From: a virus
DNA length: 59,049 bases
Direction: 5' to 3' (one strand)
Virus record (IMG/VR): IMGVR_UViG_3300020048_000003
Shown: piece after piece, positions 6,796 to 57,114 of the stretch
How positions within the stretch are numbered: position 1 is the stretch's first letter
How the letters are laid out: the number at the start of each line of letters is the position of its first letter
Made by a program: the position numbers and the translations under genes
Notes under the pieces: model-generated
What the model saw: the letters and a program-made list of their open reading frames with translations, nothing else
Databases searched by the model: none
Told to the model about the DNA's origin: nothing

Positions 6796-6954
6796 TTATT
6801 TAGGTGGTTCTTTCTTTTTTTCTTCTATTTTTATATCTCCTTTTCCTTTACAAGTTGGACAAGTATATGAGTGTCCTTCATCATTTCTTCTATAACCTCG
6901 CCCATCACAATCATGACAAATGAGGTATTTTTTCTCTGAAATATCTTCATTCAT
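6796..6954 (-). CDS. 52-aa zinc-ribbon mini-protein (CHDC...CPTC), below ORF-track cut-off
   Basis: Manual translation MNEDISEKKYLICHDCDGRGYRRNDEGHSYTCPTCKGKGDIKIEEKKKEPPK; start overlaps stop of 6954..7301 by 1 nt (TAATG). Confidence 0.45.
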   Translation of the reverse strand: MNEDISEKKYLICHDCDGRGYRRNDEGHSYTCPTCKGKGDIKIEEKKKEPPK

Positions 6955-7301
6955 TATAAATTATATTTTTTTGAATCTCTTGCTAATTTTAAATCATTTG
7001 ATTTAAAATCTTTTCTTAATCTTGTTGGTACAATTGTTATTTTATAATCATATGCGTTTTCAATTAACCAAACTTGTGCTTTTGAATAATCTGTAATCAT
7101 ATCGGCTATTGTAAATTCTTTTTGTTTTCTCATAAATTGTGTTTCTAATTGCTCATTTACCATTGTAATAAGACAATCCCTTGCACTTTCTTCATTATCA
7201 AAAACTTCAATTTGAACATCAGCATCAGTGAACCATTCAGCTACGACGACCCATAAATCATATGGTGTGATTCTATTTTCAAATATTTTTAAGTGTTTCA
7301 T
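6954..7301 (-). CDS. array cassette protein (first member at this end)
   Basis: N MKHLKIFEN / C DSKKYNL; ATGA overlap with upstream gene. Confidence 0.8.
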   Translation of the reverse strand: MKHLKIFENRITPYDLWVVVAEWFTDADVQIEVFDNEESARDCLITMVNEQLETQFMRKQKEFTIADMITDYSKAQVWLIENAYDYKITIVPTRLRKDFKSNDLKLARDSKKYNL

Positions 7302-7645
7302 AAATTATAATTTTTTGCTGTCATATCTAAAAATGCCTGTTCCATATCATCAAATGAAAAACTAATATAAAAAGTGCTGATCAATTCGCCATTATTGTCA
7401 TTAAATACTTCTAAGGTGAAAACAAATTCATTTTGATCTTTACCACATCTAGTAATAATTAAATCATCTTCTGGTATCAGATAAGGCTTATCTCCATAAT
7501 CTGGATAATAGTGTTTATCTTTTGCTAATGCAGTATATTCTTCTATAACAAAAGGTCTTATTGATTTAGTAAAATCCTCATATTCTTTTAGAATCTTTGT
7601 TGCTGATTCTATTGTGTAATTTTCGTATATTCTTTTTACTTTCAT
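7298..7645 (-). CDS. array cassette protein
   Basis: N MKVKRIYEN / C TAKNYNL; ATGA overlaps both sides. Confidence 0.8.
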   Translation of the reverse strand: MKVKRIYENYTIESATKILKEYEDFTKSIRPFVIEEYTALAKDKHYYPDYGDKPYLIPEDDLIITRCGKDQNEFVFTLEVFNDNNGELISTFYISFSFDDMEQAFLDMTAKNYNL

Positions 7646-7896
7646 AAATTATATTTTTTTGCATCTCTGTAGGCAGAACTTCTAATAAAATTTAATTCTT
7701 TTAACACTTCATCAAAATCTTCATCATGAAAAAAATAAACATCATAATCTGAATTTTGATCTTTTTGTATTAAATTACTTCCTAATAAATATCTAATTTC
7801 TGTTTCTCTACATTCAAAACTTTCATCTCCTGAATCGGAATATAAATAATAATCTTCCTCATCTTCCTCTTCTTCAAATAGTTTAATATATTTCAT
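7642..7896 (-). CDS. array cassette protein, acidic
   Basis: N MKYIKLFEEEE / C DAKKYNL. Confidence 0.8.
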   Translation of the reverse strand: MKYIKLFEEEEDEEDYYLYSDSGDESFECRETEIRYLLGSNLIQKDQNSDYDVYFFHDEDFDEVLKELNFIRSSAYRDAKKYNL

Positions 7897-8225
7897 AAGT
7901 TATATTTATTTGCTTGTATTATTATTTCTAAATCTTCTCTATTTTTAGAATAATATAAAATTTCATGTTTTTCAAATATTCTAAGAGATACATTTTTATC
8001 GTGTTTTCTAAAATAGTGTTCAAGTCTTTTTGGTATTTCTGAACTAGGATAGACAACGTAAACATTATCATTTTGTAAATCTGCTCCTATGAATGTAATC
8101 TGACCAACATTATTACATAAAAAATTATTGATATCTTCACCATAAGATGATTTCATAATAACATAATCATATATTTCTGGTTCTTCAATATTTTCGTTAT
8201 TAAATTTTTCAAATACTTTTATCAT
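7893..8225 (-). CDS. array cassette protein (MIKVFEKF N-variant; EILYYSKNRE subfamily)
   Basis: N MIKVFEKFNNEN / C IIQANKYNL. Confidence 0.8.
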   Translation of the reverse strand: MIKVFEKFNNENIEEPEIYDYVIMKSSYGEDINNFLCNNVGQITFIGADLQNDNVYVVYPSSEIPKRLEHYFRKHDKNVSLRIFEKHEILYYSKNREDLEIIIQANKYNL

Positions 8226-8623
8226 AAATTATATTTATTTGCTGCAAAAAATAAATCAATATCATCTGGTATTTCATGCTGTAATATTTCTTCATATGTT
8301 TTTCTTGTTTCACGAACTATTAATTTAAATATATAATTACCATTTTTTGTGGAACCTTCTGAGGGCCAAGGTACTGCAATATCTGGTATATGCTTATTAA
8401 TAAAAAATACTATAGATTCAGCAGGACCTTTATTAGCGTTAGGAAAATAGCATTGTATATAATCTAGTTTTATATATTTTGCACCAGTCCAATATTTATT
8501 TAAAAAAGATTTTAGATTTTTTGCTTTATTTATCATCTCTTCAGTATCCATACCACAATCAACCTTATAAATAGCAACATACCATTTATATTCATTAGTA
8601 AATTTTTCAAATATTTTTATCAT
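8222..8623 (-). CDS. array cassette protein (MIKIFEKF N-variant)
   Basis: N MIKIFEKFTNE / C AANKYNL. Confidence 0.8.
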   Translation of the reverse strand: MIKIFEKFTNEYKWYVAIYKVDCGMDTEEMINKAKNLKSFLNKYWTGAKYIKLDYIQCYFPNANKGPAESIVFFINKHIPDIAVPWPSEGSTKNGNYIFKLIVRETRKTYEEILQHEIPDDIDLFFAANKYNL

Positions 8624-9243
8624 ATATTATAATTTATTGCTACTTCTAAGTAATCATATTTTTTCTTCAAATCATCTGGTAAAAATTTTTTACATAATTT
8701 ATAATTTTCAGGATGATTTTCTAATAACCAATCTATAAAGGGTTCAACACCAGGTATTAATATTTTTTTAGGATTATGATCAGGATTTGGATATATAGTT
8801 TCAGTTAAATATAACTCAATTAAGTTATAGTTTGAATCAAAATTATATCCATATTTTACCATATTCTTTAGCATTTCTACCATCTTAGGTGTTATTACAC
8901 GTTTACTACCATCATATTTTTTTTCACCTATTATATCAGGTAAACTAATACTATTAATTGAACTATCATCTCCCCAACCATTTGCGTAATCTGATTGTAA
9001 TAAATATTCAATCATTTTAAATTGATCATTTTCCAATGCAGTGGCAAAGAGATTAGAAATTATATCTCCTGCGTTTGCTATATCGTATCCATTATCCAAT
9101 AAATAATTTAAGCCATCAAAATCTCCTTCTCTTACAATATCAACAATAAACTTATTACCAAGTTTTTGAATTAATCTTTTCTCTTTCTTTTTCTTGGCTT
9201 TTAAGTAGTCTGCTTCAGTAAATTTTTCAAATACTTTTATCAT
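8620..9243 (-). CDS. array cassette protein (207 aa, MIKVFEKF N-variant)
   Basis: N MIKVFEKFTEAD / C AINYNI. Confidence 0.8.
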   Translation of the reverse strand: MIKVFEKFTEADYLKAKKKKEKRLIQKLGNKFIVDIVREGDFDGLNYLLDNGYDIANAGDIISNLFATALENDQFKMIEYLLQSDYANGWGDDSSINSISLPDIIGEKKYDGSKRVITPKMVEMLKNMVKYGYNFDSNYNLIELYLTETIYPNPDHNPKKILIPGVEPFIDWLLENHPENYKLCKKFLPDDLKKKYDYLEVAINYNI

Positions 9244-10481
9244 AAATTATATTTTTTTACTAATAACTCCATAATTTCGGGAATATGATCATATTCATTT
9301 ATAATTTTTGGATGTAATTTATGTACTATATATTTTGCATTATTTTCATCTATATCCAATATCATTTTTTGAAATTCATATGATTTTGTTATTTTATCAT
9401 CCATTCCAATTAATTTACCAATTATACTTGGATTTTGTTTCATTTTATTAATCCAATATTTTTCATTGTTATGTGTTATTCGTCTTGTTATATATGGATT
9501 TTCTTTACCATTATAATTTGATATTATATCATATGCTAAATCTAACTCTGGTTGTGCTAAATATTTATCAAATCTTTCATCTTTTGGATGGTCAAATCCC
9601 AAAAAATCCGATTTTCTTTTTAACGCGTCTAATGCGTTATATTGATCTTGATGACTCTGTGCATCTAATATCATTTTCAAATATTTCATATCAACTCCTC
9701 TATCACTTAATAAATCTATCAATTTAAAAAAGTTTATTTCATATTTATCAATATCATGTGTTGCATAACCTGAATATGAATAATCTCTTGCTTTAATTTT
9801 TGAATTTAATAAAATTGGTAATGCCTCATAATTATCTTTACATACAACATTATAAATGTGTCTGCAGGTGACTGGTATATTTAATTCTTCTACAAGATAT
9901 TTTATTAAATCTGGTGTTGTATTATATTTAGTTGCTTCATCTAAACAATTTTCTTCTGCGTGAGTCCAAGTTGCTTGTATTTTTTTTGTAGGGTCTAAGC
10001 CTTTATTTTTTACAAAGTATTTAACTAAATCTACTTGACCATGAAAAGCAGCAATTCTTAATAACTTTGAATCTAACTTAAATCCTAATTTTTCTAAAAA
10101 ATCAAAAGTTTTATTTCTATCATCAGTTTTAGCGTGATGTATTACATATTCTAAAAAATTATTACGATTTGTTAAAAATTCTTTATATAAATCATTTTTT
10201 AACATTACGGTTTTGAATGTTTCAAAATCAAGAAATGTTATACTTCTTTCTAATCTTATCAATTCTCTTAAAGGAAGTATATCAAGTAAAGCAATTACCA
10301 TTTCTGGAAATTGTTTAGTACAACTCCAGTGAAACAAATCACTTACACTTCCTTCTATTGTATGGTTTTTTATTTTATCTAAATAATAATCAACGTCACG
10401 AATTTTATCATTAAAAAACTCGTCATATAAGGATTTTTTAGGCATCTTTTTTTTAGCCTCAAATAATTTTATATATTTCAT
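9240..10481 (-). CDS. array cassette protein, large (413 aa) with ankyrin-like repeats
   Basis: N MKYIKLFEAKKK / C VKKYNL; LLRIAAFHGQVDLVKYFVKNKGLDP ankyrin-like segments. Confidence 0.8.
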   Translation of the reverse strand: MKYIKLFEAKKKMPKKSLYDEFFNDKIRDVDYYLDKIKNHTIEGSVSDLFHWSCTKQFPEMVIALLDILPLRELIRLERSITFLDFETFKTVMLKNDLYKEFLTNRNNFLEYVIHHAKTDDRNKTFDFLEKLGFKLDSKLLRIAAFHGQVDLVKYFVKNKGLDPTKKIQATWTHAEENCLDEATKYNTTPDLIKYLVEELNIPVTCRHIYNVVCKDNYEALPILLNSKIKARDYSYSGYATHDIDKYEINFFKLIDLLSDRGVDMKYLKMILDAQSHQDQYNALDALKRKSDFLGFDHPKDERFDKYLAQPELDLAYDIISNYNGKENPYITRRITHNNEKYWINKMKQNPSIIGKLIGMDDKITKSYEFQKMILDIDENNAKYIVHKLHPKIINEYDHIPEIMELLVKKYNL

Positions 10482-10768
10482 AAGTTATATTTTTGTGCTG
10501 ATTTTTCTAATTCAAATTTTTCAATTTCTTCTGGTGTCATTTTTCTTTCTATATCATCATCACAAATTATAACTTTTCCTATTCCAGAATCTTCATCTAA
10601 AATAGCTTCTGCTTCGTAATCATCCATATTTGCCTCATCATTCCACCAATGATCTAATATTTTTACAAACGGCTTTACCATCCAATCACTTTCGGATAAG
10701 ATAACATAATCTCCAATTTTATATTTTACCTCAGATTGAGAATCTTCAAATGTTTTTATATATTTCAT
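10478..10768 (-). CDS. array cassette protein, G-D-Y-V mini-domain type
   Basis: N MKYIKTFEDSQ...KIGDYVIL / C TPEEIEKFELEKSAQKYNL. Confidence 0.8.
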   Translation of the reverse strand: MKYIKTFEDSQSEVKYKIGDYVILSESDWMVKPFVKILDHWWNDEANMDDYEAEAILDEDSGIGKVIICDDDIERKMTPEEIEKFELEKSAQKYNL

Positions 10769-11978: not shown

Positions 11979-12484
11979 AAATTATATTTTTCTATATTTT
12001 TATAGAATTCAATTGGTTCTAATTGTTCTTCAATTTCTTTACATATAACTTCAAATTCTTTTATTATATCATCAAATATATTATTCTTTTTAAGAACGTC
12101 TTGTATTTTTGGGTAATATTCTTTTGTAAAATTCATGTATAAATCAATTGGTAAAAATTCATTATACTCAGTACCCCAGAAATGTGATAGATTACTAGTT
12201 CTATAGTGAGATATATTATTTAATGTTGTTGTAAAATAATATAAATCAAATGTGTTCAATCCTTCTTGTATATCACGAGTTCTCAATTTTATTTCTCTTA
12301 ATTTCGGATCATTTAATTTATTTGATTTCTTACGAATTAAATCTAATATTCCAACAATTCCATTAAATTGGCTTTGTCCTATGGACATACAAAAATAATC
12401 ATTTGTATTGTATTCAAGTACAAATTCATCACAAGAATATACTATTTTTTGGTATCTATTTTCAAATAATTTTAAATATTTCAT
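11975..12484 (-). CDS. array cassette protein (169 aa)
   Basis: N MKYLKLFENRY / C KNIEKYNL. Confidence 0.8.
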   Translation of the reverse strand: MKYLKLFENRYQKIVYSCDEFVLEYNTNDYFCMSIGQSQFNGIVGILDLIRKKSNKLNDPKLREIKLRTRDIQEGLNTFDLYYFTTTLNNISHYRTSNLSHFWGTEYNEFLPIDLYMNFTKEYYPKIQDVLKKNNIFDDIIKEFEVICKEIEEQLEPIEFYKNIEKYNL

Positions 12485-12876
12485 AAGTTATATTTTTCTG
12501 CGTCTTCAAATCTATCAATAATATCTTTGTATTTTGGATCATATTTTAATCTACTATCAAATCCTACGGTATCATATATAATTTGTTCTTTACCTAAATT
12601 TATTATTGATTTTTGTAAATCTAAATCATTTTGTAATCTTCTTTTAAAATCCCAACTATCTTCAAATTCTTCTAAATTTATACCTTTTTCAACTAAATGT
12701 GCAAACATTACAAAAGGATCATAACATGCTTGAACTAAAGCTTCTTCATTATTTATATCATAACCTTTATTAAGAAAGAAATCAACTATCTTAATTTCTC
12801 CAGTTTGAACAGATTTTTTAAATAGCAAATCTTTCATTTCCTTAATATTATTATATTTTTCAAATAATTTAATCAT
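12481..12876 (-). CDS. array cassette protein
   Basis: N MIKLFEKYNN / C EDAEKYNL; preceded by divergent intergenic region. Confidence 0.8.
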   Translation of the reverse strand: MIKLFEKYNNIKEMKDLLFKKSVQTGEIKIVDFFLNKGYDINNEEALVQACYDPFVMFAHLVEKGINLEEFEDSWDFKRRLQNDLDLQKSIINLGKEQIIYDTVGFDSRLKYDPKYKDIIDRFEDAEKYNL

Positions 12877-12916
12877 AATATTTTATATATATAAAAAAAT
12901 AAATATTTATTTTTAG
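12877..12916. promoter_or_regulatory. 40-nt AT-rich divergent intergenic region (candidate promoters for 12876<- and ->12917)
   Basis: Only non-coding spacer between divergently oriented genes; TATATATAAAAAAATAAATATTTATTTTTAG. Confidence 0.3.
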
Positions 12917-13819
12917 ATGATAGATTTAGTATTAACAATGATAGCCGCGTATGATGATTATGAAACCGAACTTGGTTTTACAAAAGATGATATAAATAAT
13001 ATCATCAAAAAATATAAAGCACTTGATGATTTAAAAGAAAGTAATGAAATAGGATGGATCATTTTGTGGAAAAACAAGTATATTTCAAATGAAATATTTG
13101 CAAAATTAATGGATGTTGAATACGAAGATAAGGATTTTTGGATTGTGTGTGATAATTTTGATGATGTTTTATCTAAGGAATATGAAACAGAAATTGAAAT
13201 TTTAGATGGTAATTTAGATTGGGAACCAGGTGAAACTTATGATGTTGAATTATATTATCATTGGAACTCATTTACAGAAGAAACATTAAAAGACATAGTA
13301 AAATTTTGTATTGATAAAGGATTTGAAATTGATGATGAATTAATGACAGAAGAAAATACAATCTTTAAAGATGGTGATATATATTTTATTGGTTCTGATG
13401 ATGAAAAAAGAATCTATGATCTATTAAATGATGATGAATTGGAAGATTTAAAAAGTTCATTAAATATCGCAATATGTGAAGCACAAGAAAGTGCTGATCA
13501 GAGTGAAATGTATAGAGCTGTAAAAAAGGCTTTTATAAATTCAGTTGGCGAATATAAATATAAAACTATCAATGTAGATGGAAAAGACGAAGAGAAATTA
13601 TATATTAGAATGGATATAGATTGGGTTGATATTGAATCTAGATTAAAAGATGAATATGGTGATTTTGACTTTGATACAGAAAATTATGGAAGTCTTCTTT
13701 ATATATTAAAAGAATATGAATATTTTGATTTTAGAGTACCCGATTATGATCGTTTATCTGGTAGTATTGATGATGATATAATGAATGAATATATTCAAAA
13801 TCGTTTAGAGTGGGATTAA
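12917..13819 (+). CDS. acidic hypothetical protein (300 aa) on opposite strand, interrupting the array
   Basis: ORF track; D/E-rich; convergent 4-nt overlap with 13816..14685. Confidence 0.7.
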   Translation: MIDLVLTMIAAYDDYETELGFTKDDINNIIKKYKALDDLKESNEIGWIILWKNKYISNEIFAKLMDVEYEDKDFWIVCDNFDDVLSKEYETEIEILDGNLDWEPGETYDVELYYHWNSFTEETLKDIVKFCIDKGFEIDDELMTEENTIFKDGDIYFIGSDDEKRIYDLLNDDELEDLKSSLNIAICEAQESADQSEMYRAVKKAFINSVGEYKYKTINVDGKDEEKLYIRMDIDWVDIESRLKDEYGDFDFDTENYGSLLYILKEYEYFDFRVPDYDRLSGSIDDDIMNEYIQNRLEWD

Positions 13820-14690: not shown

Positions 14691-14918
14691 TTATATATTA
14701 TATTTTTCAGCATCAATTTCATATTCAGGCACGTGTTCTATATGATTTTCATCTATCCAACCACATTTATTTCCCCAAGCATCTAATAGATAAACCCTAT
14801 TATAATTAACATTTTCAACTTTAAATTTAGTTCTCTTATGTGGTTCATCAAGTATGAAAACTATATCACCAGTTTTAAATTTTGGCTTTTGTTCTTCAAA
14901 TATTTTAATATGTTTCAT
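14691..14918 (-). CDS. array cassette protein, 75-aa G-D-I-V mini-domain
   Basis: N MKHIKIFEEQ...KTGDIVFIL / C VPEYEIDAEKYNI. Confidence 0.8.
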   Translation of the reverse strand: MKHIKIFEEQKPKFKTGDIVFILDEPHKRTKFKVENVNYNRVYLLDAWGNKCGWIDENHIEHVPEYEIDAEKYNI

Positions 14919-15355
14919 AAATTATATTTATTTGCATTTTTTCTCATCTCTCTTTCTTCAAAGAAGTCAGGATGATATTTTAAAAATACTTGTTTAATTT
15001 TTGGTCTATCTCTAAGTTGTGTTGTTTTATTTGCCCAATCAAAAACATCAAAATCATCATCTACTTGATGATATACATCAGCACCATTTTCTATTAATTC
15101 ATCTACCATCTTCCAATTTGACCAATTTATAGCAGTCATTAAAAGAGTATATATAGTATGGTATGGTGATTGACTTATTTCTTCTTCCGAATAATTGTCT
15201 TGATTAGGATTTCCACCTTTTTTAATAGCATCTAAAAACTTCCAATAATCTTGATCCTTAACACTATCATATAAATTTTTATCAATTTCTTTTTGTGTTT
15301 CAGTTAATTCTGGCTCAGGTGATTTCTTAAAATAATCTTTGAATTTTGTAAACAT
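14915..15355 (-). CDS. array cassette protein with ankyrin-like repeat
   Basis: N MFTKFKDYFKK / C NANKYNL; LLMTAINWSNWKMVDELIENGADV. Confidence 0.75.
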   Translation of the reverse strand: MFTKFKDYFKKSPEPELTETQKEIDKNLYDSVKDQDYWKFLDAIKKGGNPNQDNYSEEEISQSPYHTIYTLLMTAINWSNWKMVDELIENGADVYHQVDDDFDVFDWANKTTQLRDRPKIKQVFLKYHPDFFEEREMRKNANKYNL

Positions 15356-15861
15356 TATAAATTATATTTTTTTGTAGCACCAAATAATGGATATTTTTCA
15401 TCAATATATTTTTTTACTTTTATTGTTGCAACATCATAAAAATCTTTACCTTCATTATTTCTAATTGTCATATCAGGATCAAATTCTAAAATCAATTTTA
15501 CATTTTTAATATCATCTTTTGAATTTTTAGTAATAGTAATTAATGGTGTATTACCTTCTTCATCTTTACTATCAACATCAGCACCACTCTCTAAAAAATC
15601 AACAACAGCAATCATATCTAAGTTTTCTGCTGCTAATCCAAGACATACATCAGGATCCGTAGGAACACCAAAATGATTTTCAATTCTTTCTTTTGCCTCT
15701 TTTTCTGATATGTGAAATTTTGAGGTGACTTGATTTATTATTCCCCATAAATCATCACTTGTAAAATAATCCGAACTATCATAATCTCTAAAATCCGATT
15801 TGAACCAATCTTCAAGATTCCATGGATCTCTTTTTTTTTCAAATGTTTTAATATATTTCAT
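15355..15861 (-). CDS. array cassette protein, ankyrin-repeat
   Basis: N MKYIKTFEKK / C ATKKYNL; DFLESGADVDSKDEEGNTPLITITKNS. Confidence 0.8.
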   Translation of the reverse strand: MKYIKTFEKKRDPWNLEDWFKSDFRDYDSSDYFTSDDLWGIINQVTSKFHISEKEAKERIENHFGVPTDPDVCLGLAAENLDMIAVVDFLESGADVDSKDEEGNTPLITITKNSKDDIKNVKLILEFDPDMTIRNNEGKDFYDVATIKVKKYIDEKYPLFGATKKYNL

Positions 15862-19942: not shown

Positions 19943-20583
19943 TACATATTATATTTTTCTGCTTCTTTCTCAACTACTCTCATTGGAAATTCAACTTTTA
20001 TACTTCTCAATAATTCTTCTGCTTCTTCTTTATTAAATCTAATGCTATTATAAGAATAAAACTCATCTTGTGTATTTCGTTTAAGTCCCATTTCTTTCAT
20101 TTTATCAGAATAGATTTGTAATCTAGAATAAGTACTTAGTTTTTGAAAAACTCCATCATAATATAAATATATGCTTGGAATAATAACTCTAAGAGGATCT
20201 TCTCCTTCTTCATACTTTACTTTAATATTATCATCTTTCACTATATTAAATTTTGGTATTTTACCATTAAGTAAAGTTTTATAATCAAAAAATTTATTAA
20301 GATTATAACTTAATCTTTTACCTAATTTTTTTTTATCTTTTTCTACTTCTTCTGCATTTTTTATTACATCATCAATTGTTTTGCCCCAACATTTAATATC
20401 TTTTAAAAATAATTTCATTGTAAGATTACCCAGTTGAACTTCAATCATTATTTCAGGTTCATAATCATGAACAAATCTTTTAACTACTGCTATTCTTCTA
20501 AAATAAGCGTATGTGTTTATCATTACATAATCGCCAATTTGTGGCATATCAGTCATTTCTTCAAATAATTTTATATATCTCAT
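19942..20583 (-). CDS. array cassette protein (213 aa)
   Basis: N MRYIKLFEEMT / C KEAEKYNM. Confidence 0.8.
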   Translation of the reverse strand: MRYIKLFEEMTDMPQIGDYVMINTYAYFRRIAVVKRFVHDYEPEIMIEVQLGNLTMKLFLKDIKCWGKTIDDVIKNAEEVEKDKKKLGKRLSYNLNKFFDYKTLLNGKIPKFNIVKDDNIKVKYEEGEDPLRVIIPSIYLYYDGVFQKLSTYSRLQIYSDKMKEMGLKRNTQDEFYSYNSIRFNKEEAEELLRSIKVEFPMRVVEKEAEKYNM

Positions 20584-20858
20584 ATGTTATATTTTTCTGC
20601 TTCTTTTCTTAATTCCATATCTTTTATAAAATCTAAATGATTATTAACTAAATCTATTAATATTTGGTCTTTCTGTTTTTTAGCAAATCTTAAAACTTTT
20701 ATCAATCCAGTTCTACTAAATCCATGACCATGTCTTCCTGTTATTTTTTTTTCATTTGGATATTTCTCAATAAGATAACTTTTTATAGGTGCCTCACTTT
20801 TAATTAATTCAACAACATCAGCATATGTATATTCTTCAAATAATTTAATATATCTCAT
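20580..20858 (-). CDS. array cassette protein
   Basis: N MRYIKLFEEYT / C KEAEKYNI; followed by 44-nt gap. Confidence 0.8.
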   Translation of the reverse strand: MRYIKLFEEYTYADVVELIKSEAPIKSYLIEKYPNEKKITGRHGHGFSRTGLIKVLRFAKKQKDQILIDLVNNHLDFIKDMELRKEAEKYNI

Positions 20859-20902
20859 AGAGATTATATATAAAATAAATAAAATAAAAACTTGAAAAGG
20901 AA

Positions 20903-21418: not shown

Positions 21419-21789
21419 AAGTTATATTTTTTTACTGCAACAATTTCTGGATAATTATCATCAATCCATTTTATGGTTTTTTTATATCCACCTTCATATT
21501 TTTGTTTGGCTAAACATAAATCATAAAAATCTATCATTTCTTTAGTTCCGCTTATATGATGTAATGCTTTATAATGTGTATCAGCACCAGCATCTATTAA
21601 CATTTTCATAATTTCTGTATTCTGTAAATAAGCAGCCCACATTAACGCTGACCATTTGTAAGGATTATCAGTACAATTCGGATCATGACCATGATCTAAC
21701 ATTAATTTAACATATGATGGTTTTTCTGCTTTAACTGCTATAATTAAATCAGGTGAACCTATTTCTTCAAATAATTTTAAATGTTTCAT
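21415..21789 (-). CDS. array cassette protein, ankyrin-repeat
   Basis: N MKHLKLFEEIG / C AVKKYNL; SALMWAAYLQNTEIMKMLIDAGADTHYK. Confidence 0.8.
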   Translation of the reverse strand: MKHLKLFEEIGSPDLIIAVKAEKPSYVKLMLDHGHDPNCTDNPYKWSALMWAAYLQNTEIMKMLIDAGADTHYKALHHISGTKEMIDFYDLCLAKQKYEGGYKKTIKWIDDNYPEIVAVKKYNL

Positions 21790-41869: not shown

Positions 41870-41928
41870 ATCTATTATATATTAAATTAAAAAATTAATA
41901 TTATAGATATGACTAATTAATAAAGAAA

Positions 41929-43254: not shown

Positions 43255-43271
43255 AAATTATTCGTTTTTAC

Positions 43272-43296
43272 GAAAATCTTTGATTCTCAAAGATTA
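43272..43296 (-). terminator. hairpin ATCTTTGA-TTC-TCAAAGAT plus T-run; terminator-like element replacing junction
   Basis: 7-bp stem 43276-43294 containing stop of 43287..44126; adjacent TTCGT-TTTT-ACGAA mini-hairpin. Confidence 0.4.
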
Positions 43297-45552: not shown

Positions 45553-45855
45553 TTATAAATTGTATTTATTTGCTTGTATTATATATTCTAATTTTTCTTT
45601 GTCTTTTGAGATATATAAAATTTCTTCTCTACCGAACCACATAGGTTGATCATAGGCATCTTCTATATGTTTTGGTACGTTTTCAAATTCAACAACATAT
45701 CTTCTCATAAGAGGTGTGTGTTGAAGTTCAATAACTTTTCCTATTGCACTTGCAAAATAAATATCTAAATCTTTATCAGGATCCTCTAAATTTTGACAAA
45801 TAACATAGTCACCTACTTTTGGATCTTTCTTTTCAAATAATTTTATATATTTCAC
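45553..45855 (-). CDS. array cassette protein, EILYISKDKE subfamily
   Basis: N MKYIKLFEKKDPKVGDYVIC / C YIIQANKYNL. Confidence 0.8.
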   Translation of the reverse strand: MKYIKLFEKKDPKVGDYVICQNLEDPDKDLDIYFASAIGKVIELQHTPLMRRYVVEFENVPKHIEDAYDQPMWFGREEILYISKDKEKLEYIIQANKYNL

Positions 45856-47276: not shown

Positions 47277-47653
47277 AAATTATATTTTGTTATTTCTTCA
47301 TAATCTTTTCCAATTTTAACTGCTTCAGCAGCAGGTATATCCACAATAAATCTTAACATATCTTCTTTACTTTTAAAATGCGTTCCTATTTCAGTATCAA
47401 GACATTCTAATTTTAATTTTTCAAATGTGTCAAACACATTTTGTGTTTGTTCATCATCAATATCTAAATCATAATAAAATTCATATCTGATAATTGGTGT
47501 ATCTTCATTTGTAAATTCCCAATCAAAATAGTCTTTTTGTGGTAATTGTGATTCAATATAATATCCACAATTCTCAATTATTTTTTCATAATATTCCCAC
47601 TTAGATTGGAATTTATCTAAATCTTGATTATAATCTTCAAATGTTTTTATCAT
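47273..47653 (-). CDS. array cassette protein
   Basis: N MIKTFEDYNQ / C EITKYNL. Confidence 0.8.
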   Translation of the reverse strand: MIKTFEDYNQDLDKFQSKWEYYEKIIENCGYYIESQLPQKDYFDWEFTNEDTPIIRYEFYYDLDIDDEQTQNVFDTFEKLKLECLDTEIGTHFKSKEDMLRFIVDIPAAEAVKIGKDYEEITKYNL

Positions 47654-47997
47654 ATATTATATTTATTTGCAATTTTATGTAATTCCCTTTTTTCATGAAA
47701 ATCTGGAAACAATTTTGTGAATAATTTCTTACCTTTTTTATCCGCATAATAGTACGCATCATGCCCATATTTATTTATTAGATATGGATCTGCACCATTT
47801 GTTAGTAAAAATTTTATCCCTGTATATCTACATTCTAAGCAAGCAGTTATCAATAATGTATAATCCGCATCAAAAAAAGAATTTATATTAATTTTATCAA
47901 GTTGCTGTATCATACGTTGAATATCATCATGTCGCATGTGATAAAGAAAAGTTTCTTCTTCACTCCAATTATTTTCGTATAATTTGATATATTTCAT
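47650..47997 (-). CDS. array cassette protein, ankyrin-like
   Basis: N MKYIKLYENNW / C IANKYNI; TLLITACLECRYTGIKFLLTNGADPYLINKYGHDAYYYA. Confidence 0.8.
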   Translation of the reverse strand: MKYIKLYENNWSEEETFLYHMRHDDIQRMIQQLDKININSFFDADYTLLITACLECRYTGIKFLLTNGADPYLINKYGHDAYYYADKKGKKLFTKLFPDFHEKRELHKIANKYNI

Positions 47998-48007
47998 CTA
48001 TCTATAT

Positions 48008-48040
48008 ATAAAAAAACCTTTGAATTTTTTTCAAAGGTTA
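48008..48040 (-). terminator. intrinsic terminator inside array (CCTTTGAATTTTTTTCAAAGG hairpin + T7); near-identical twin of 30766-30785
   Basis: 8-bp stem 48017-48037 overlapping stop of 48031..48387; T-run on minus strand. Confidence 0.6.
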
Positions 48041-48387
48041 TATTTATTTGCAGTTAATTCATACTCTTCTATATTCACCATCCCGGCAAATTTATATCCT
48101 TCTTCTTCATAATAAGAATCATATAATTTTCCATAATATGGATTCCACCCCCATTTACTTGAAGAATGTTTTACCCTAGATTTTCCATTATATCCGATAA
48201 ACATATATTTATTATCAAAATTTGGATCATCACTTTTTCTAGTATATTGGTGCACACTTTTTAATAGACCTTCACTATAACTTTTTGCACATTTTATCTT
48301 CTTTAAAGAATCCTCAAATCTATCATCAGTTGGTATTAGCCAATAAAGTTTTTCATTTCTATTTTCGTATAATTTAATATATTTCAT
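48031..48387 (-). CDS. array cassette protein
   Basis: N MKYIKLYENRN / C LTANKYNL (stop embedded in terminator stem). Confidence 0.8.
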   Translation of the reverse strand: MKYIKLYENRNEKLYWLIPTDDRFEDSLKKIKCAKSYSEGLLKSVHQYTRKSDDPNFDNKYMFIGYNGKSRVKHSSSKWGWNPYYGKLYDSYYEEEGYKFAGMVNIEEYELTANKYNL

Positions 48388-49097
48388 AAGTTGTATTTAT
48401 TACTAGAGAATAAATATCCATATTCTTCTCTTATTTTTTTGTGTATTTTATTATCATCAAATTTTGAAATTTCATCTGGATACATCTCACATAATAGTTT
48501 TTGAAAAGGATAATTTTTTCCCTTTGTCCATCCATTTAAATCATTTTTTCTATTCATATGTGGATTAAATGTAGTTTCTATAAAACAACCAGCTTTTAAA
48601 AGTATAATTGCATTTTCATACGCTTTATTAAAAGTAGCATGAAATATTGGTAAAACACCTGAATTATTTGGTGTATTAATATCTGCACCTTGTTCTATTA
48701 AATATTTTAATATCTTGCCAGATATAGAAGATTTTATACCTGCTGCAGAATATATTGCAGTTGAATTACAACTATTATGAGCCTCTAAATCAGCACCATT
48801 TTCTACTAAACATTTTATCAGATTGAAATCTTGTAAATCAACAGACATCATTAATAAAGACCCCCAATTATTTGCAGGATCATGAACATTTATATCAGCA
48901 CCTTTATCAATAAGTTTTTGAACTTTAGAAATTGATACTTTTTTGAAATTCTTAATATCAAAACTAAGATCTTTTCTGGTTCTATCTGTTCGTATTTTTT
49001 CCCATTCTGTGATTATTTGATCGTAAATCAGATGAAGAAGTTCATCTGTTGGAGATATTTTTATTTTTTTGGTATATGCCTCAAATAGTGTTATCAT
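48384..49097 (-). CDS. array cassette protein, ankyrin-repeat (237 aa, at least 4 repeats)
   Basis: N MITLFEAYTK / C SSNKYNL; NNWGSLLMMSVDLQDFNLIKCLVENGADLEAHNSCNSTAIYSAAG... Confidence 0.85.
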   Translation of the reverse strand: MITLFEAYTKKIKISPTDELLHLIYDQIITEWEKIRTDRTRKDLSFDIKNFKKVSISKVQKLIDKGADINVHDPANNWGSLLMMSVDLQDFNLIKCLVENGADLEAHNSCNSTAIYSAAGIKSSISGKILKYLIEQGADINTPNNSGVLPIFHATFNKAYENAIILLKAGCFIETTFNPHMNRKNDLNGWTKGKNYPFQKLLCEMYPDEISKFDDNKIHKKIREEYGYLFSSNKYNL

Positions 49098-49501
49098 AGA
49101 TTATATTTTTTTGTTGTTGGGTGATCATAATAACCTACAAGTTTTATTAATTCTTCTTCTAATTTTTTCATATTTTTAAACATAAAAATTGTTTCTAAAA
49201 ATAAAAGTTCTGGATTATTACCACCATCATCATCAAGTACAGAAAATTTATATTTACCATAAAAAGTCAACCAACTTAAATATTCATATATTTTCAAAAA
49301 AACTTCAGCGTTTAAATCCTTCACTAAAAATTCTATTGTTAAGGCTATACTATTTTCATCATTATCTAATATTTCAGTATTACCGTAATCAATTCCCTTA
49401 AAAAAATGTTTTAGTATAGATTCACCATACCATTCATATTCTTCAAAACCTTCTTCAACATTGCTTAATGTTGAATTCTCATATATTTTTTTAATTTTCA
49501 T
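49094..49501 (-). CDS. array cassette protein
   Basis: N MKIKKIYENS / C TTKKYNL. Confidence 0.8.
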   Translation of the reverse strand: MKIKKIYENSTLSNVEEGFEEYEWYGESILKHFFKGIDYGNTEILDNDENSIALTIEFLVKDLNAEVFLKIYEYLSWLTFYGKYKFSVLDDDGGNNPELLFLETIFMFKNMKKLEEELIKLVGYYDHPTTKKYNL

Positions 49502-49578
49502 AAGTTATATTTTTTTACATCAAAAAATAAATCCAAATCAATAGTTATTTTACTTTCAAACCGTTTTAAATATTTCAT
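49498..49578 (-). CDS. empty cassette: 26-aa mini-ORF MKYLKRFESKITIDLDLFFDVKKYNL made only of the N-tag and C-tag
   Basis: Manual translation; ATGA overlaps on both sides keep the translational-coupling chain intact; below ORF-track cut-off. Confidence 0.6.
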   Translation of the reverse strand: MKYLKRFESKITIDLDLFFDVKKYNL

Positions 49579-51271: not shown

Positions 51272-51627
51272 AAATTATATTTATTTGCGTCTTTTTCTAA
51301 TTGAAATTTTTCCATATACATATTTATAGTATAATCGTCTAAATGAAAAAGATAGTATATCCTTGAATAAGAAGAATCATCAACTATTTCAGTTTCAAAC
51401 ATCCATCCTGAATATCCCATAAAAATTTCAAATTTTTCTATACTTTCAACCGTTTCTTTAAATATAGAACTAAAACAAATTTTAAATTTAAATACATCAA
51501 CACTAACATCGTATTTTATGACAATATCATCAAATTCATCTAATCCAATAAAAAACTTTTGAATAACTAATTTTTTAAATTCTTTTGCTAAATCTTTATT
51601 GTTTTCGTATAATTTCTTTATCTTCAT
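51268..51627 (-). CDS. array cassette protein
   Basis: N MKIKKLYENNK / C KDANKYNL. Confidence 0.8.
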   Translation of the reverse strand: MKIKKLYENNKDLAKEFKKLVIQKFFIGLDEFDDIVIKYDVSVDVFKFKICFSSIFKETVESIEKFEIFMGYSGWMFETEIVDDSSYSRIYYLFHLDDYTINMYMEKFQLEKDANKYNL

Positions 51628-51629
51628 AA

Positions 51630-52040
51630 TTATAAATTATATTTATTTACTGCGTTTTGTAAATCATATTCTTTTAGATATTCTTTACATATTTTTGGAA
51701 CTCTTTCTCTTAAATATTCAATAATTTCTTTCTGATATTTATGTGCAAACAAGTGAACAAAATCTCTATTAAAGTTATCCCTTACATTTAAATCTGCGCC
51801 TTCTTTTATTAAAATTATCATCATTTCTTTTAAAACTAATTTTTTAATACTTTTAGTTAAATTAGGTAAACTGGATTCCCAAATATTTGCGATTGTCATT
51901 AATGGTGTTAACTCATATTCGTCTCTGATATTTACATCAATACCAGAGTTTATTTTTGATATAAAATAATCATAATCACATTTTTCTATTGCTTCAAATA
52001 TATCTAAACTTTTTGCTTCGTATAATTTCTTTATCTTCAT
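51630..52040 (-). CDS. array cassette protein, ankyrin-like
   Basis: N MKIKKLYEAKS / C AVNKYNL; ELTPLMTIANIW...LIKEGADLNVRDNFNRDFVHLFA. Confidence 0.75.
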   Translation of the reverse strand: MKIKKLYEAKSLDIFEAIEKCDYDYFISKINSGIDVNIRDEYELTPLMTIANIWESSLPNLTKSIKKLVLKEMMIILIKEGADLNVRDNFNRDFVHLFAHKYQKEIIEYLRERVPKICKEYLKEYDLQNAVNKYNL

Positions 52041-52042
52041 AA

Positions 52043-52336
52043 TTATAAATTATATTTATTTGCTGCTCTTATTAATTCTAATCTATCTTCAATTTCTTTT
52101 CTATCTCTCTTTAGATATTCACCTTTGATTATTAAATATGGAGGTTTATCGTTTAATTCCATCCATTCTTCACTTGTTATCATCATCATCTCACCTGTTG
52201 CTTTTCCATCACTATCAATTTCAAATATTACAGATTTTTTATCTTCCATCATATCATGAAATCTGCCCGAATTCATTGAACCTGAGGCATCAAGAAGAGT
52301 ATGACGAAAAAATTCATATGTTTTAATATTTTTCAT
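52043..52336 (-). CDS. array cassette protein
   Basis: N MKNIKTYEFF / C RAANKYNL. Confidence 0.8.
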   Translation of the reverse strand: MKNIKTYEFFRHTLLDASGSMNSGRFHDMMEDKKSVIFEIDSDGKATGEMMMITSEEWMELNDKPPYLIIKGEYLKRDRKEIEDRLELIRAANKYNL

Positions 52337-55180: not shown

Positions 55181-55181
55181 T

Positions 55182-55466
55182 TCAGAGATTGTATTTTTTT
55201 GCGTTGTATTCCCATTCATATAAAAACATTTTTTCAGGAATTATATAACCTATTTTATTATCATCTTTATCATATACACGATAATAGTATCTAATACTTG
55301 ATGATATCACGTCATATATTTTATATTTTTCACCTATTTCACATCTATTTGAATCTGATTGATATGGATTTGTATATCGTCTACCAATAAAAATAACTTC
55401 TTCATCAATCTTAAATTTAGAATCTTCAATTGGTTTCTGACCTTCAAATGTTTTAATATATTTCAT
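55182..55466 (-). CDS. array cassette protein
   Basis: N MKYIKTFEGQ / C YNAKKYNL. Confidence 0.8.
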   Translation of the reverse strand: MKYIKTFEGQKPIEDSKFKIDEEVIFIGRRYTNPYQSDSNRCEIGEKYKIYDVISSSIRYYYRVYDKDDNKIGYIIPEKMFLYEWEYNAKKYNL

Positions 55467-55765
55467 AAGTTATATTTATTCAAATTTATATAAAATTCAA
55501 TTTCATCTTCAGTTAATTTTCTATTTATTCTATCTTCTATTATATAAATAAATTCTTCATCATTATATTTAGTCAATCTTTCAGATACATTAAAACCTTC
55601 ATATTGAATCCTTTGATATTTAGTATCTAAATGAAAATTAACTCCTTCAATATCGGTTATTCTCATTACTTTACTATTATCATATAACACAATATCATTG
55701 ATTTTATACTTTGCTATTTTTTTTAAATCAACATAACTAATTTCAAATGTTTTAATATATTTCAT
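55463..55765 (-). CDS. array cassette protein, mini-domain type
   Basis: N MKYIKTFEIS...KINDIVLY / C LTEDEIEFYINLNKYNL. Confidence 0.8.
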   Translation of the reverse strand: MKYIKTFEISYVDLKKIAKYKINDIVLYDNSKVMRITDIEGVNFHLDTKYQRIQYEGFNVSERLTKYNDEEFIYIIEDRINRKLTEDEIEFYINLNKYNL

Positions 55766-56037
55766 AAGTTATATGTTTCAGCACTATTTTTTAATTCAAA
55801 TTCCTCATAATCTTCTGATGTTGCTAATCTTAAAATTTGAAATTCATATGCACCATCTACTTTTTTATTATTTTTAGGATATTTATTTTCTATTTGGTAA
55901 CTTGTAGGTACAATATCAAAAATAGTTCCGATTCTCTCTTCTTCTTTTTCCATTGTATAATCATAATACGTATAAATAATAGTATCACCAACTCTATAAG
56001 GGCGATTCAATTCTTCATATGTTCTAATATATTTCAT
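55762..56037 (-). CDS. array cassette protein, mini-domain type
   Basis: N MKYIRTYEELNRPYRVGDTIIY / C KNSAETYNL. Confidence 0.8.
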   Translation of the reverse strand: MKYIRTYEELNRPYRVGDTIIYTYYDYTMEKEEERIGTIFDIVPTSYQIENKYPKNNKKVDGAYEFQILRLATSEDYEEFELKNSAETYNL

Positions 56038-56492
56038 AAATTATAATTATTTACAGCGTTATAAAATTCAAATTCTTCTTCAGATACCTTTTTTATAAGT
56101 TCAGGTATTTGTGTAAAGCCAGTTAATTTTGGTGTATTTTTCATTACATTATAAAAAAACAATACCCTATCAAGAAGAGCATCTGGAATTTTTGGTTTAG
56201 CGACAGTTTTTTCTAATTGCCAATCTTTTATGTTTATGTTTACTCTAAATTCAAACCACATATCTATATCTTCGTAGTAATGATCAATTTTATTTAACGT
56301 AAATAAATGATGTTTACCCTTTTTATTTTCACAATAAAAATTATATCCCATTGCATTTTCATGTGAATAAACGCGACAATCATTATTCATTGTTAAAAAA
56401 TCTATTAAATGTTTTACGAAATCTGGTAAGATATGACCATACCAACCAAGTGGTCTTTTTTCTAATATCTCAAATGTTCTAATATATCTCAT
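56034..56492 (-). CDS. array cassette protein
   Basis: N MRYIRTFEIL / C NAVNNYNL. Confidence 0.8.
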   Translation of the reverse strand: MRYIRTFEILEKRPLGWYGHILPDFVKHLIDFLTMNNDCRVYSHENAMGYNFYCENKKGKHHLFTLNKIDHYYEDIDMWFEFRVNINIKDWQLEKTVAKPKIPDALLDRVLFFYNVMKNTPKLTGFTQIPELIKKVSEEEFEFYNAVNNYNL

Positions 56493-56821
56493 AGATTATA
56501 TTTATTTACAGTACTTTTAAATTCTAAATCGTTTAGAAATTCCTCAACATCTTCTATTTCAGTTCCTAATTTTGTCATTTCTTGTACTCTCCATAAACTT
56601 ACCTCTCCCCATAGTTTGAATTTTTTTTGTTTTTCTGATTTAGTAGTAAAAACATAAAAACTACAATCTTTAGCAAATTCAACCATTCTAAAATCTTCTA
56701 TATCAGCACTTAAAATATGAGATATCAACTTTTCAAATTTTTCTTTATCATTATCTTTTGATAATGATTTACCATACCAATTCATTGTATTCTTATTTTC
56801 AAATAATTCTATGTATTTCAT
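56489..56821 (-). CDS. array cassette protein
   Basis: N MKYIELFENKN / C STVNKYNL. Confidence 0.8.
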   Translation of the reverse strand: MKYIELFENKNTMNWYGKSLSKDNDKEKFEKLISHILSADIEDFRMVEFAKDCSFYVFTTKSEKQKKFKLWGEVSLWRVQEMTKLGTEIEDVEEFLNDLEFKSTVNKYNL

Positions 56822-57114
56822 AAATTATAATTTCTTGTTGTTCTTTCAAATTCAAATTCTTCAATTTCCTCTGGGGTTAGTTTTCTTTCAACAGTATATT
56901 TATTATAAACTATTCTCTCATTATCTATTAGTTCTATTTCAACATTACCATATGGATAAACATTTACTACTTTACCCCTGTCAGGAATTTCAACAAAATC
57001 AACTCCATCAGTAAAACTCATATCATATAATTTAACATAATCTCCAACTTCACATTTAACCAAATCTGGTTCATCACGTTTTATAATAGTTTCAAATAAT
57101 TCTATGTATTTCAT
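56818..57114 (-). CDS. array cassette protein, mini-domain type; first (most upstream) gene of this array block
   Basis: N MKYIELFETII...EVGDYVKL / C TPEEIEEFEFERTTRNYNL. Confidence 0.8.
   Translation of the reverse strand: MKYIELFETIIKRDEPDLVKCEVGDYVKLYDMSFTDGVDFVEIPDRGKVVNVYPYGNVEIELIDNERIVYNKYTVERKLTPEEIEEFEFERTTRNYNL

Follow-up and report, generated by a model that had tools for sequence, protein, structure and literature searches.

A stretch of 59,049 nucleotides (nt) of viral DNA (IMG/VR record IMGVR_UViG_3300020048_000003; "the window" below is this whole stretch) is mostly taken up by an array of small open reading frames (ORFs) that follow each other on the minus strand. These ORFs, here called cassettes, share one plan: a leader M-K-Y-I-K-x-[F/Y]-E at the N-terminus, a cargo domain that varies between cassettes, and a predicted C-terminal helix ending in A-x-K-Y-N-L. 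The shared ends are constrained as protein, not as DNA. Our tentative but favoured reading is that they are two protein tags on a hugely expanded, late-expressed effector repertoire, akin to the capsid-targeting sequence of phage T4, with the prohead core as the most probable destination. The destination, the cleavage and the injection are the parts of this reading that we infer.

In the ORF listing of the window, the minus strand from 6954 to 58143 is tiled by 124 ORFs of at least 60 amino acids (aa); the array there comes to about 125 small ORFs with a median length of 118 aa. Coordinates in this text refer to the window, and cassettes and their signals lie on the minus strand unless another strand is named. 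The G+C content of the window is 24%, with a strong strand skew. One cassette, at 57715-58143, lies outside the span first described. The same virus was also assembled independently (L024, 99.87% identical; related viral loci are numbered in this way). That assembly reaches 7.7 kb past the right edge of the window, and holds about 17 further cassettes there, beginning directly after a Toprim-domain gene. In all, 7.7 kb of sequence was gained on the right and 1.4 kb on the left. The whole array therefore has at least 140 cassettes and measures about 57 kb or more. A cassette protein identical to one from the window is recorded on a contig of 286,618 bp, which means that the array is about one fifth of the genome.

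The cassettes are packed very tightly. There are 76 four-nt ATGA overlaps, in which the stop codon of one ORF overlaps the start codon of the next, as well as 9 one-nt overlaps and 21 gaps of 0-6 nt. Nearly all junctions that are not ATGA fall between -1 and +6 nt. Three of the four apparent long overlaps (54722, 17086 and 16776) are artefacts of picking the longest ORF; the real starts are internal methionines followed by the usual leader. The remaining one, 32218/32472, comes from a cassette with a frameshift. A polyprotein, or recoding of stop codons, was considered and rejected: all three stop codons delimit the perfect tiling, and the ATGA overlaps change the frame.

At the C-terminus, 120 of the 124 ORFs end in Y-N-[L/I/M]. 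This is KYNL in 98 cases, NYNL in 7 and KYNI in 6. Conservation there spans about 14 residues, which read [E/D]-hydrophobic-x-x-[D/N]-A-x-K-Y-N-L. The N-terminal consensus is M-K-Y-I-K-x-F-E; 107 of 124 ORFs have an [F/Y]-E with its Glu at residue 5-9, and in 79 of these the Glu is residue 8. The N and C motifs go together. Over all loci, the N motif is found in 76% of the ORFs that have the C motif, versus 8% of the others (odds ratio 35, p = 2e-94). On the DNA level this gives a 26-nt junction consensus, AAATATAAYTTATGAAATATATWAAA, that is matched 55 times at three or fewer mismatches, always on the minus strand, where shuffled sequences lead us to expect 0.03 matches. For example, the exact copy at 35114-35139 spells K-Y-N-L-stop, holds the next ATG in a 4-nt ATGA overlap, and goes on with K-Y-I-K. 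A co-directional cassette array with common termini, a repeated junction of about 40 nt and a 4-nt stop/start overlap had all been described in an earlier note on this DNA, and these counts bear that description out.

The junctions could be conserved for the sake of the DNA, the RNA or the protein. Synonymous sites are informative here. The final Leu codon is drawn from TTA, CTA, CTC, CTT and TTG. The Ile in the M-x-Y-I of the leader is written as ATA 22 times, as ATT 19 times and as ATC twice. For the C-terminal Asn, AAC is used in 31% of cases, versus 8% in cassette interiors, and TAC makes up 10% of the Tyr codons in the C-terminal motif, 22% in the N-terminal motif and 7% in interiors. Over the last four codons, about 71 variants are synonymous and about 33 non-synonymous. 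Because synonymous junction sites vary as much as interiors do, or more, the conservation of the junctions is a protein-level constraint on two peptides, and not a constraint on DNA. The C motif is also present in 12 of the 13 cassettes that have no abutting downstream gene, and is therefore more than the translation-initiation region of the next gene. Both motifs are kept in 153 of 168 short distant homologues obtained from profile searches, and the search with the commonest cargo class, which is SH3-like, reached 1,901 clusters at 50% identity. That the junction might be a promoter for every cassette was also considered, and rejected: ATATATA is spelled out at only 20 of 124 5' ends, and the choice of Ile codon is unconstrained.

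AAC and TAC are both rare codons that end in C, and they are enriched three- to fourfold at the conserved motif residues versus the interiors. This may come from selection for decoding accuracy at critical residues, or it may be a context effect. The tags also come in genome-specific variants that are common to many cassettes within a genome, such as KFNL or KFNI in L001, L002 and L013, MKYIKAFEE in L007 and L020, and MKYIKKYQL in L016. Such variants fit either co-evolution with a common receptor or local homogenisation.

That the cassette interiors are mostly unrelated to each other, as first noted, holds for BLASTP, which leaves 89 of 124 as singletons. It holds less well for iterated profile searches. 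These were run on 121 window cassettes with the termini removed, and leave 44 singletons next to five multi-member families. The largest family is a small beta-domain ('KVGDYV') of the SH3-like kind, with 38 cassettes. Ankyrin follows with 12, a third family has 9, two further families have 4 each, and 10 cassettes are in small clusters of two members. Pfam independently reports ankyrin repeats in nine cassettes. Very acidic proteins, a double zinc ribbon and a DxSxS motif of the vWA-like kind are also seen among the cargos. The median isoelectric point (pI) of the cassette proteins is 5.55, with 68 acidic and 30 basic, and long hydrophobic stretches of the membrane type are absent. Database homologues that come with a source name are all called 'hypothetical protein', and none has a Pfam domain.

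AlphaFold2 was used on a representative of each of the two largest classes. The ankyrin cassette at 31482-31868 is predicted with a confidence (predicted local distance difference test, pLDDT) of 89.9. Its residues 1-6 score below 50 and are unstructured, after which come ankyrin helices, and a C-terminal helix (111-125) that runs into KYNL. The SH3-like cassette at 10478-10768 is modelled as a coil over residues 1-20 (pLDDT about 52 for the first ten), a barrel over 21-76, and a C-terminal helix over 79-94. Since two unrelated folds show the same termini, the tags are, in these models, outside of the cargo fold: the N tag is a free disordered leader and the C tag is the end of a terminal helix. 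The candidate idea that the termini form a paired structural clasp was dropped, as both models predict no contact between the N and C motifs. The beta-domain of the SH3-like cargo is also found untagged, as tandem repeats in unrelated long proteins. In a fold search its only matches were generic barrels (BAH, PWWP, chromo and eIF5A-like), all with E above 0.003 and none significant. Three other cargos were compared with the PDB by sequence, and nothing was found.

Expression is probably organised in runs. Eight cassette runs in the window start with an ATATATA[A/G] box, which sits 11-16 nt before the ATG in seven cases, and 28 nt before it at 57114. Counted over the de-duplicated genes of the lineage, this box precedes the portal gene in 10 of 10 cases, the protease gene in 14 of 14, and the first cassette of a run in 28 of 45. 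Abutting genes, which serve as background, have it in 8-10% of cases. A second box, TAnnTTTG, is found in about 2% of the background, before none of the portal or protease genes, and before 0 of the 45 first cassettes. The genes flanking the array do carry it, as TAATTTTG, TATATTTG and, twice, TATCTTTG; these boxes lie at 2199-2206 and 2922-2929 on the plus strand, and at 6049-6056 and 6397-6404 on the minus strand.

TAnnTTTG is the -7 element of the housekeeping sigma factor of the Bacteroidota. The boxes thus suggest early transcription by the RNA polymerase of the host, and a Bacteroidota host; going by these promoters, the host is probably a member of that phylum. The T4 late promoter is TATAAATA, which the ATATATA box resembles. 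Judging from the sequences, the two box types suggest two temporal promoter classes. We infer that transcription of the array goes along with that of the head genes, and that a run comprises about 10-15 translationally coupled cassettes. Coupling down the whole array, as originally proposed, is another matter. Several gaps carry a hairpin followed by a U-run, with folding energies of -10 to -18 kcal/mol and z-scores of -3.5 to -5.6. The terminators and promoter-like boxes split the window part of the array into at least eight units, which makes translational coupling over its full length impossible. The supposed uninterrupted chain of about 50 kb is larger than was thought, and also broken: by the eight promoter-like starts, the terminators, plus-strand ORFs and a 281-nt element.

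The phages that carry such arrays appear to be uncultured. Neither blastn with the left flank nor tblastn with one cassette found a match in 50,697 cultured-phage records. The junction pattern has no match in 185,579 prokaryotic species genomes either, so these give no prophage or host clue. Uncultured viral contigs do have it: 22 loci, with 21-26% G+C and from contigs of up to 330 kb, carry the pattern, and many of these loci hold arrays. The flanks of these loci encode clamp loaders, SbcCD-like nucleases, head-closure proteins and a T4-type portal. In L005, the portal gene (PF07230, 3.7e-63) is adjoined by two canonical cassettes, and a match to Gp23 (7e-25) comes from cassette-carrying contigs or clade members. 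The nearest database relatives of the portal are 'uncultured phage' genomes of 634-735 kb (LR7565xx and LR745206, 47-63% identity), which we take to be from the 2020 survey of huge phages, and after these the Lak megaphages.

A conserved head module can be recognised at 52 further portal loci. Its genes code for a 253-aa protein, the portal, a protein of 150-200 aa, another of about 790 aa, and a capsid protein of the gp23 type. In the 790-aa protein, the N-terminal domain has matches to Peptidase_S80 (1.5e-6, above the cut-off) and to S77, the family of T4 gp21 (9e-5, below the cut-off). In the loci examined, cassettes are confined to a sub-clade with a portal identity of at least about 74%. 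Distant members with higher G+C have essentially no cassettes in their 10-kb flanks, L073 having one C-motif ORF. One related phage, L083, has a layout like that of the window, with a Toprim gene, then a cassette array, and a cREC gene nearby. The window is tied to this head module indirectly but consistently. Its carrier is best seen as an uncultured, very AT-rich, T4-related phage of about 287 kb, whose clade has a portal of the T4 type, gp23 as capsid protein and a prohead protease of the S77/S80 kind.

T4 itself offers the closest precedent. Its internal proteins have a common N-terminal propeptide only, of 10-19 aa, which reads MKTYQEFIAE; targeting needs residues 4 and 7 (Tyr and Phe), and processing needs residues 8 and 10 (PMC8442874, PMC9026906). 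About 360 copies of each internal protein are packaged, to be injected along with the DNA, and each of these proteins inhibits a single GmrSD variant. Over 30 variants exist, in two plastic loci. The T4 protein Alt is trimmed at both termini, and the prohead proteases of T4 and phiKZ cleave after Glu (PMC8442874, PMC9026906, PMC12373910, PMC3012670, PMC2839356, also for the two preceding statements).

The array resembles this system in several ways. The lineage is T4-type, and unrelated small proteins share a short N-terminal leader. The leader consensus MKYIKLFE has an aromatic residue at 3, another at 7, and Glu at 8. Five cassettes begin with MKTYE-x-F-[I/F] or MIKVYENFI, and starts like MKTYENFI, MKTYEKFI and MKTYEAFI can be held next to MKTYQEFIAE of T4: the aromatics are at 3 or 4 and at 7, and the Glu that ends the leader would be the P1 residue of the prohead protease. 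The genes are grouped in a plastic hotspot, and the cargos look like binders or inhibitors. In addition, small strain-variable genes that have only the N motif are located inside the head module.

The mechanism that we propose would run as follows. Runs of about 10-15 cassettes would be transcribed from the promoter class of the head genes, and translated by way of the stop/start overlaps. Each protein, small and soluble, has the leader M-K-Y-I-K-x-[F/Y]-E, predicted to be disordered, as its N tag and the amphipathic helix ending in A-x-K-Y-N-L as its C tag, with interchangeable cargo between the two, be it an SH3-like barrel, ankyrin repeats, zinc ribbons, an acidic protein or an orphan sequence. 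The tags would bring many small binder or effector proteins to one place, most probably the prohead core, where the prohead protease would remove the leader after its Glu. The cassette proteins would then be injected alongside the DNA and confront the varied defences of hosts. At 5-10 copies per species, the total load would be about equal to the roughly 1,000 internal protein molecules of T4. A stronger form of the proposal is more doubtful, although possible: that over 100 small binder proteins are loaded in each capsid by the two-ended tag and co-injected as a broad-spectrum, bet-hedging anti-defence cocktail, with the junctions doubling as recombination sites.

A number of things weigh against delivery by the capsid. 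At P3 of the presumed cleavage site, L or I is found in only 45 of 124 cassettes, a poor fit to the L/I-x-E rule of T4. Only a few cassettes resemble the T4 leader in sequence, and in a proteome this AT-rich the resemblance could be fortuitous. A conserved C-terminus is lacking in the T4 internal proteins, which are basic; a genome has 3 to about 10 of them, in two small loci. The cassettes, on the other hand, have a second, C-terminal tag, are mostly acidic (at the median pI given above), and number at least 140 over about 57 kb. So many genes sharing one capsid interior would be unprecedented. To our knowledge, only Alt and gp21 of T4 are processed at the C-terminus. The genes for the internal proteins each have their own promoter and stem-loop, whereas the cassettes abut by ATGA. 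Packaging, cleavage and injection, which are documented for the internal proteins, are proposed for the cassette proteins. The ATATATA box also precedes 33% of other genes that are first in a run, and its 'late' label rests on the association with head genes and the resemblance to TATAAATA. Finally, the head module is known from clade relatives and from contigs that share cassettes, not from the window's own 287-kb contig.

The tags may also be protein address or docking peptides for a target that is not the capsid, such as a common chaperone of phage or host, an ATP-dependent protease (for timed degradation), a cytoplasmic assembly, or other cassette proteins, in a head-to-tail association. 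We consider this possible, if on the whole somewhat unlikely. All protein-level evidence for the tags applies equally to such a target. Related loci encode an ATP-dependent protease (phrog_4871, 5e-122), a Clp-type ATPase (AAA_2) and HSP20, the C-terminal helix has no counterpart in the T4 internal proteins, most cassettes are acidic, and 140 cargo species exceed any known capsid content by far. But the cassette runs share their promoter class with the head genes, cassettes and N-motif-only genes are interspersed among head genes, and the leader ends in Glu, like the substrates of prohead proteases. No candidate receptor was identified for a destination of this kind.

The junctions show signs of recombination, which is relevant to a second alternative. 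Exact tracts of 26-45 nt, in register, are shared by 58 pairs of junctions, and for 38 of these pairs the cassettes are unrelated on both sides. An exchange footprint lies at 51604-52061, around the ankyrin cassette 51630-52040, where the junctions at 52040 and 51627 have a 45-nt exact tract in common. These two junctions agree over about 50 nt but for a single mismatch, and the shared stretch takes in the non-coding spacer as well as three rare codons, AAG, AAG and TAC. The identity ends right past the leader, and the cargos are unrelated (ankyrin versus alpha/beta). Immediate neighbours with unrelated interiors also have more similar 5' ends than random pairs (0.627 versus 0.581, z = 3.9), an effect that is gone at lag 2.

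Comparison with relatives points the same way as these footprints. In L083, the homologues of window cassettes come in the order 50593, 13816, 48031 / 49094, 55182, 43287, 23099, 10478, 36960, which is scrambled with respect to the window. Their identities are 38-49%, except for the match to 23099 at 28%. In L080, a homologue of cassette 10478 that is 74% identical has an unrelated upstream neighbour, and in L081 the cassette neighbours likewise differ from those of the window. L024 and L025 are independent assemblies of the same strain as the window (99.87-99.88%), and so are uninformative on polymorphism of the array. Strict synteny among relatives, which would have spoken against a shuffling array, is thus not what is seen.

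This leads to the question if the junction is there as DNA, as a recombination linker for unequal crossover, with the shared termini as a by-product. The 55 near-identical 26-mers, the 58 pairs with exact tracts, identity bounded by junctions between unrelated cargos, the neighbour effect and the scrambled order in a relative would all fit, and there are precedents in the PeSL elements and the internal protein loci of T4-type phages (PMC2839356, PMC4122927). We nevertheless regard it as very unlikely. Synonymous junction positions are no more conserved than interiors, and several are less so (AAC 31% versus 8%, five Leu codons, ATA about as frequent as ATT). It is the amino acids that are preserved, as the balance of synonymous over non-synonymous variants in the last four codons indicates. 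The C motif is an amphipathic helix of about 14 residues, and both motifs persist across the 1,901 clusters, in which the DNA has long diverged. The earlier note had proposed a fixed linker, and had said beforehand that freely variable synonymous sites would refute it; freely variable is what they turned out to be.

What remains of the proposed recombination accordion is the shuffling itself, for which the scrambled order, the tracts of up to 45 nt and the neighbour effect are evidence. Junction recombination is however a consequence of the protein constraint, and not its cause or the purpose of the junction. Every gene would have to keep both tags, so that each junction carries 26-45 nt of near-identical DNA. 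This homology would secondarily permit unequal crossing-over and cassette exchange, and hence expansion of the array, the scrambled order between relatives, and the 'empty' cassette described below.

It is highly improbable that the cassettes are an ordinary family of tandem paralogues, in which the termini are a structural core (for example paired terminal strands) and the middle diverges in an arms race. There are many adjacent paralogue pairs and families, and profile iteration joins 38 window cassettes in one class. Even so, ankyrin solenoids and SH3-like barrels can't be divergent forms of one fold, the models predict a disordered N leader out of contact with the C-terminus, the distance from Met1 to [F/Y]-E varies from 5 to 9 residues, and a cassette of 26 aa exists that has no middle at all. 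The earlier view that this is not a normal paralogous family stands, given unrelated folds with the same termini. Least probable is a junction that is an RNA translation signal, where an unstructured stop/start of only A and U (AAAUAUAAUUUAUGAAAUAUAUAAAA), used for re-initiation in a non-Shine-Dalgarno host, dictates the codons for K, Y, N, L, I and F: the 76 ATGA overlaps without any Shine-Dalgarno-like sequence at junctions, the TAnnTTTG promoters that point to a Bacteroidota host, and the A/U-rich codons of all motif residues agree with it, but the C motif is kept in those 12 of 13 cassettes without an abutting gene, C-ending codons (AAC, TAC) are enriched in the motifs and not avoided, non-cassette genes of the same genome have unrelated N-termini, and the F/Y-E and the Ala at position -6 are left unexplained.

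Several known systems are partially similar. PeSL elements are repeats that flank unrelated ORFans in T4-type phages, and are thought to drive insertion, deletion and replacement by homologous recombination (PMC2839356, PMC4122927). The scrambled cassette order among relatives and the exchange footprints that stop at junctions are reminiscent of this, and a few cassette junctions are also composite terminator and promoter elements. A PeSL element, however, is about 100 bp of non-coding intergenic DNA that combines an early promoter of the sigma70-like kind with a stem-loop and a Shine-Dalgarno sequence. The cassette repeat consists of last and first codons, is constrained as protein, and usually has no intergenic DNA. 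About eight cassette gaps hold a terminator or promoter-like box, and that box is of the head-gene class.

In encapsulin cargo-loading peptides, and in the C-terminal coat-binding helices of phage scaffolds, a short terminal peptide or helix, often at the C-terminus, directs diverse cargo to the inside of an HK97-fold shell. By analogy, a gp23-type capsid or its core could be the target of the cassette helix with its KYNL end. The sequences are not similar, and an encapsulin takes up one or a few kinds of cargo, not over 100. The ankyrin accordions of giant viruses and poxviruses, which had been offered as the nearest analogue, are likewise large tandem co-directional expansions of small interaction-domain genes, with ankyrin among the cargos here. 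But those are expansions of a single family in eukaryotic viruses. The present carriers are T4-type tailed phages, ankyrin accounts for 12 of 121 cassettes, and it is a pair of terminal tags, not a repeat domain, that unifies the array, so the analogy does not hold up. Integron cassettes, with an attC imperfect inverted repeat at every boundary and an integrase gene alongside, were also considered and rejected: the junctions are coding overlaps, and hairpins occur only at the non-abutting gaps that were examined. Scans of the flanks and cassettes with Pfam and PHROG turned up no integrase family.

Conceptually, then, the array can be seen as the internal-protein hotspot of T-even phages in a variant form, with a plasticity like that of PeSL elements. 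It differs in the two tags, a size that is 15-50 times larger, the organisation in overlapping genes, and the share of about 20% of the genome. It had been suspected that no such system was described before, and nothing relevant was found in the searched literature on these motifs, or on such multigene arrays in jumbo phages.

If the tags are indeed packaging and delivery signals, this would be by far the largest known repertoire of virion-delivered phage proteins, at 140 or more per genome. The signature would then be searchable, and lead to a catalogue of candidate anti-defence and host-takeover proteins; the SH3-like class alone would contribute about 1,900 clusters at 50% identity. It would also extend the T4 capsid-targeting principle to a two-ended tag, and possibly provide new tags for loading foreign proteins into capsids. 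Whatever the function, the array is a clear natural case of protein constraint creating dispersed DNA homology that drives expansion and shuffling. It also explains about 20% of a huge phage genome that would otherwise be annotated as 'hypothetical'.

The individual run starts are as follows, from right to left. A ATATATAG box at 57135-57142 lies 28 nt upstream of the ATG of cassette 56818-57114 and is a putative promoter of the head-gene (late) class. At 47998-48037 there is a composite of terminator and promoter. Its hairpin, CCUUUGAAAAAAAUUCAAAGG plus a U-run, follows cassette 48031-48387 and folds at -10.3 kcal/mol (z -3.5), and its ATATATAG box (48002-48009) is 12 nt before the next ATG. 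A ATATATAA box at 41875-41882 is 13 nt before the ATG of cassette 41528-41869, a ATATATAG box at 38328-38335 is 12 nt before that of cassette 37385-38323, and a ATATATAA box at 32931-32938 is 11 nt before that of cassette 32664-32927. A second composite, at 30747-30795, combines a hairpin and U-run of -13 kcal/mol (z -5.4) with a ATATATAG box at 30750-30757, 11 nt before the ATG of cassette 30447-30746. The remaining two are a ATATATAA box at 20864-20871, 13 nt before the ATG of cassette 20580-20858, and a ATATATATAA box at 12883-12892, 14-16 nt before the ATG of cassette 12481-12876, where a run starts after a plus-strand interruption.

The strong intrinsic terminator at 33157-33198, after cassette 33209-33601, folds at -18.4 kcal/mol (z -5.6). 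In three terminators, after the cassettes at 48031, 30779 and 43287, the 5' arm is made up of the last Leu codon CTT and the TGA stop. As the hairpin is built from the last codon and the stop, Leu is CTT at these three run ends, and TTA elsewhere. These hairpins (CTT-TGA ... TCAAAG) lie at 48013-48037, 30763-30790 and 43262-43286.

The 281-nt non-coding element inside the array is at 32928-33208. It contains the strong terminator just mentioned and then three tandem 30-nt units (33009-33098), each with a short GC-richer hairpin (AAGTTTGTTA..TAACAAACTT) and a YTTATAA[A/T]GGA spacer. The spacer looks like the promoter/start region of the next cassette. Rfam has no match to the element, which could hold operator sites or iterons, or encode a small RNA. 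In the window as a whole, scans for Rfam families and tRNAs found nothing.

Some cassettes deviate from the plan. The 'empty' mini-cassette at 49498-49578 (MKYLKRFESKITIDLDLFFDVKKYNL, 26 aa) consists of the N and C modules only, with ATGA overlaps at both ends. A cassette at 45553-45855 starts with GTG and reads VKYIKLFEKK..ANKYNL. At 32218-32663 there is a frameshifted or decayed cassette, of which the N-terminal half (32472-32663) and the C-terminal half (32218-32505, ending in KKYNL) are in different frames. In the ORF listing, the array is interrupted on the plus strand by two small ORFs of 124 and 65 aa at 57168-57720, and by an acidic ORF of 300 aa at 12917-13819. Family searches with the latter protein assigned it no family. 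A homing endonuclease was suspected there because of a GIY-YIG-like ORF in L021, and rejected since no endonuclease family was found. The L021 ORF, at 9618-10559 of that locus, interrupts or flanks a related array.

The ankyrin cassettes other than the modelled one are at 8620-9243, 12481-12876, 14915-15355, 15355-15861, 21415-21789, 22710-23102, 24934-25551, 36960-37388, 47650-47997, 48384-49097 and 51630-52040. Extremely acidic cargos are found at 28070-28411, 7642-7896, 35505-36392, 37385-38323 and 40387-41247, and net charge goes down to -47 across the cassettes. Such acidity recalls the DNA-mimic anti-restriction proteins. The only acidic cargo that was searched, 35505-36392, had no sequence or structure match. 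A metagenomic protein of 176 aa, P0032, is an in-frame fusion of two SH3-like cassettes. In it, the KYNI tail of the first joins the '..YENK' of the second leader, and the stop and the M-K-x-x-K are gone, which looks like a deletion within a junction.

Near-identical head-module contigs differ by insertions or deletions of single genes, at 7397-7688 in L046, 5731-6391 in L047, 2640-2838 in L036 and 8813-9172 in L062. These genes have the N motif only (MEKLKKFEN.., MTKLKKFE.., MNKLKKFEN.. and MKNLNKFEN..), without a KYNL tail. The insert in L046 is bordered by a direct repeat of about 17 nt that comes from the 3' end of the upstream gene.

Beside the array, at 3803-4135 on the minus strand, the window encodes a protein with a cREC_REC domain, a receiver domain of the cyclic-phosphate processing kind (PF20274, 3e-16; phrog_1479). 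A homologue is found at 5001-5420 of L083, within that array, which makes it a conserved array neighbour. Selfish elements and other unusual genes also interrupt or flank the arrays in L001-L022, among them LAGLIDADG and intein domains, IS605 OrfB/TnpB, TnsA-like endonucleases, a homologue of the anti-CBASS protein Acb3, an IF3 C-terminal domain, HSP20 and LRR proteins.

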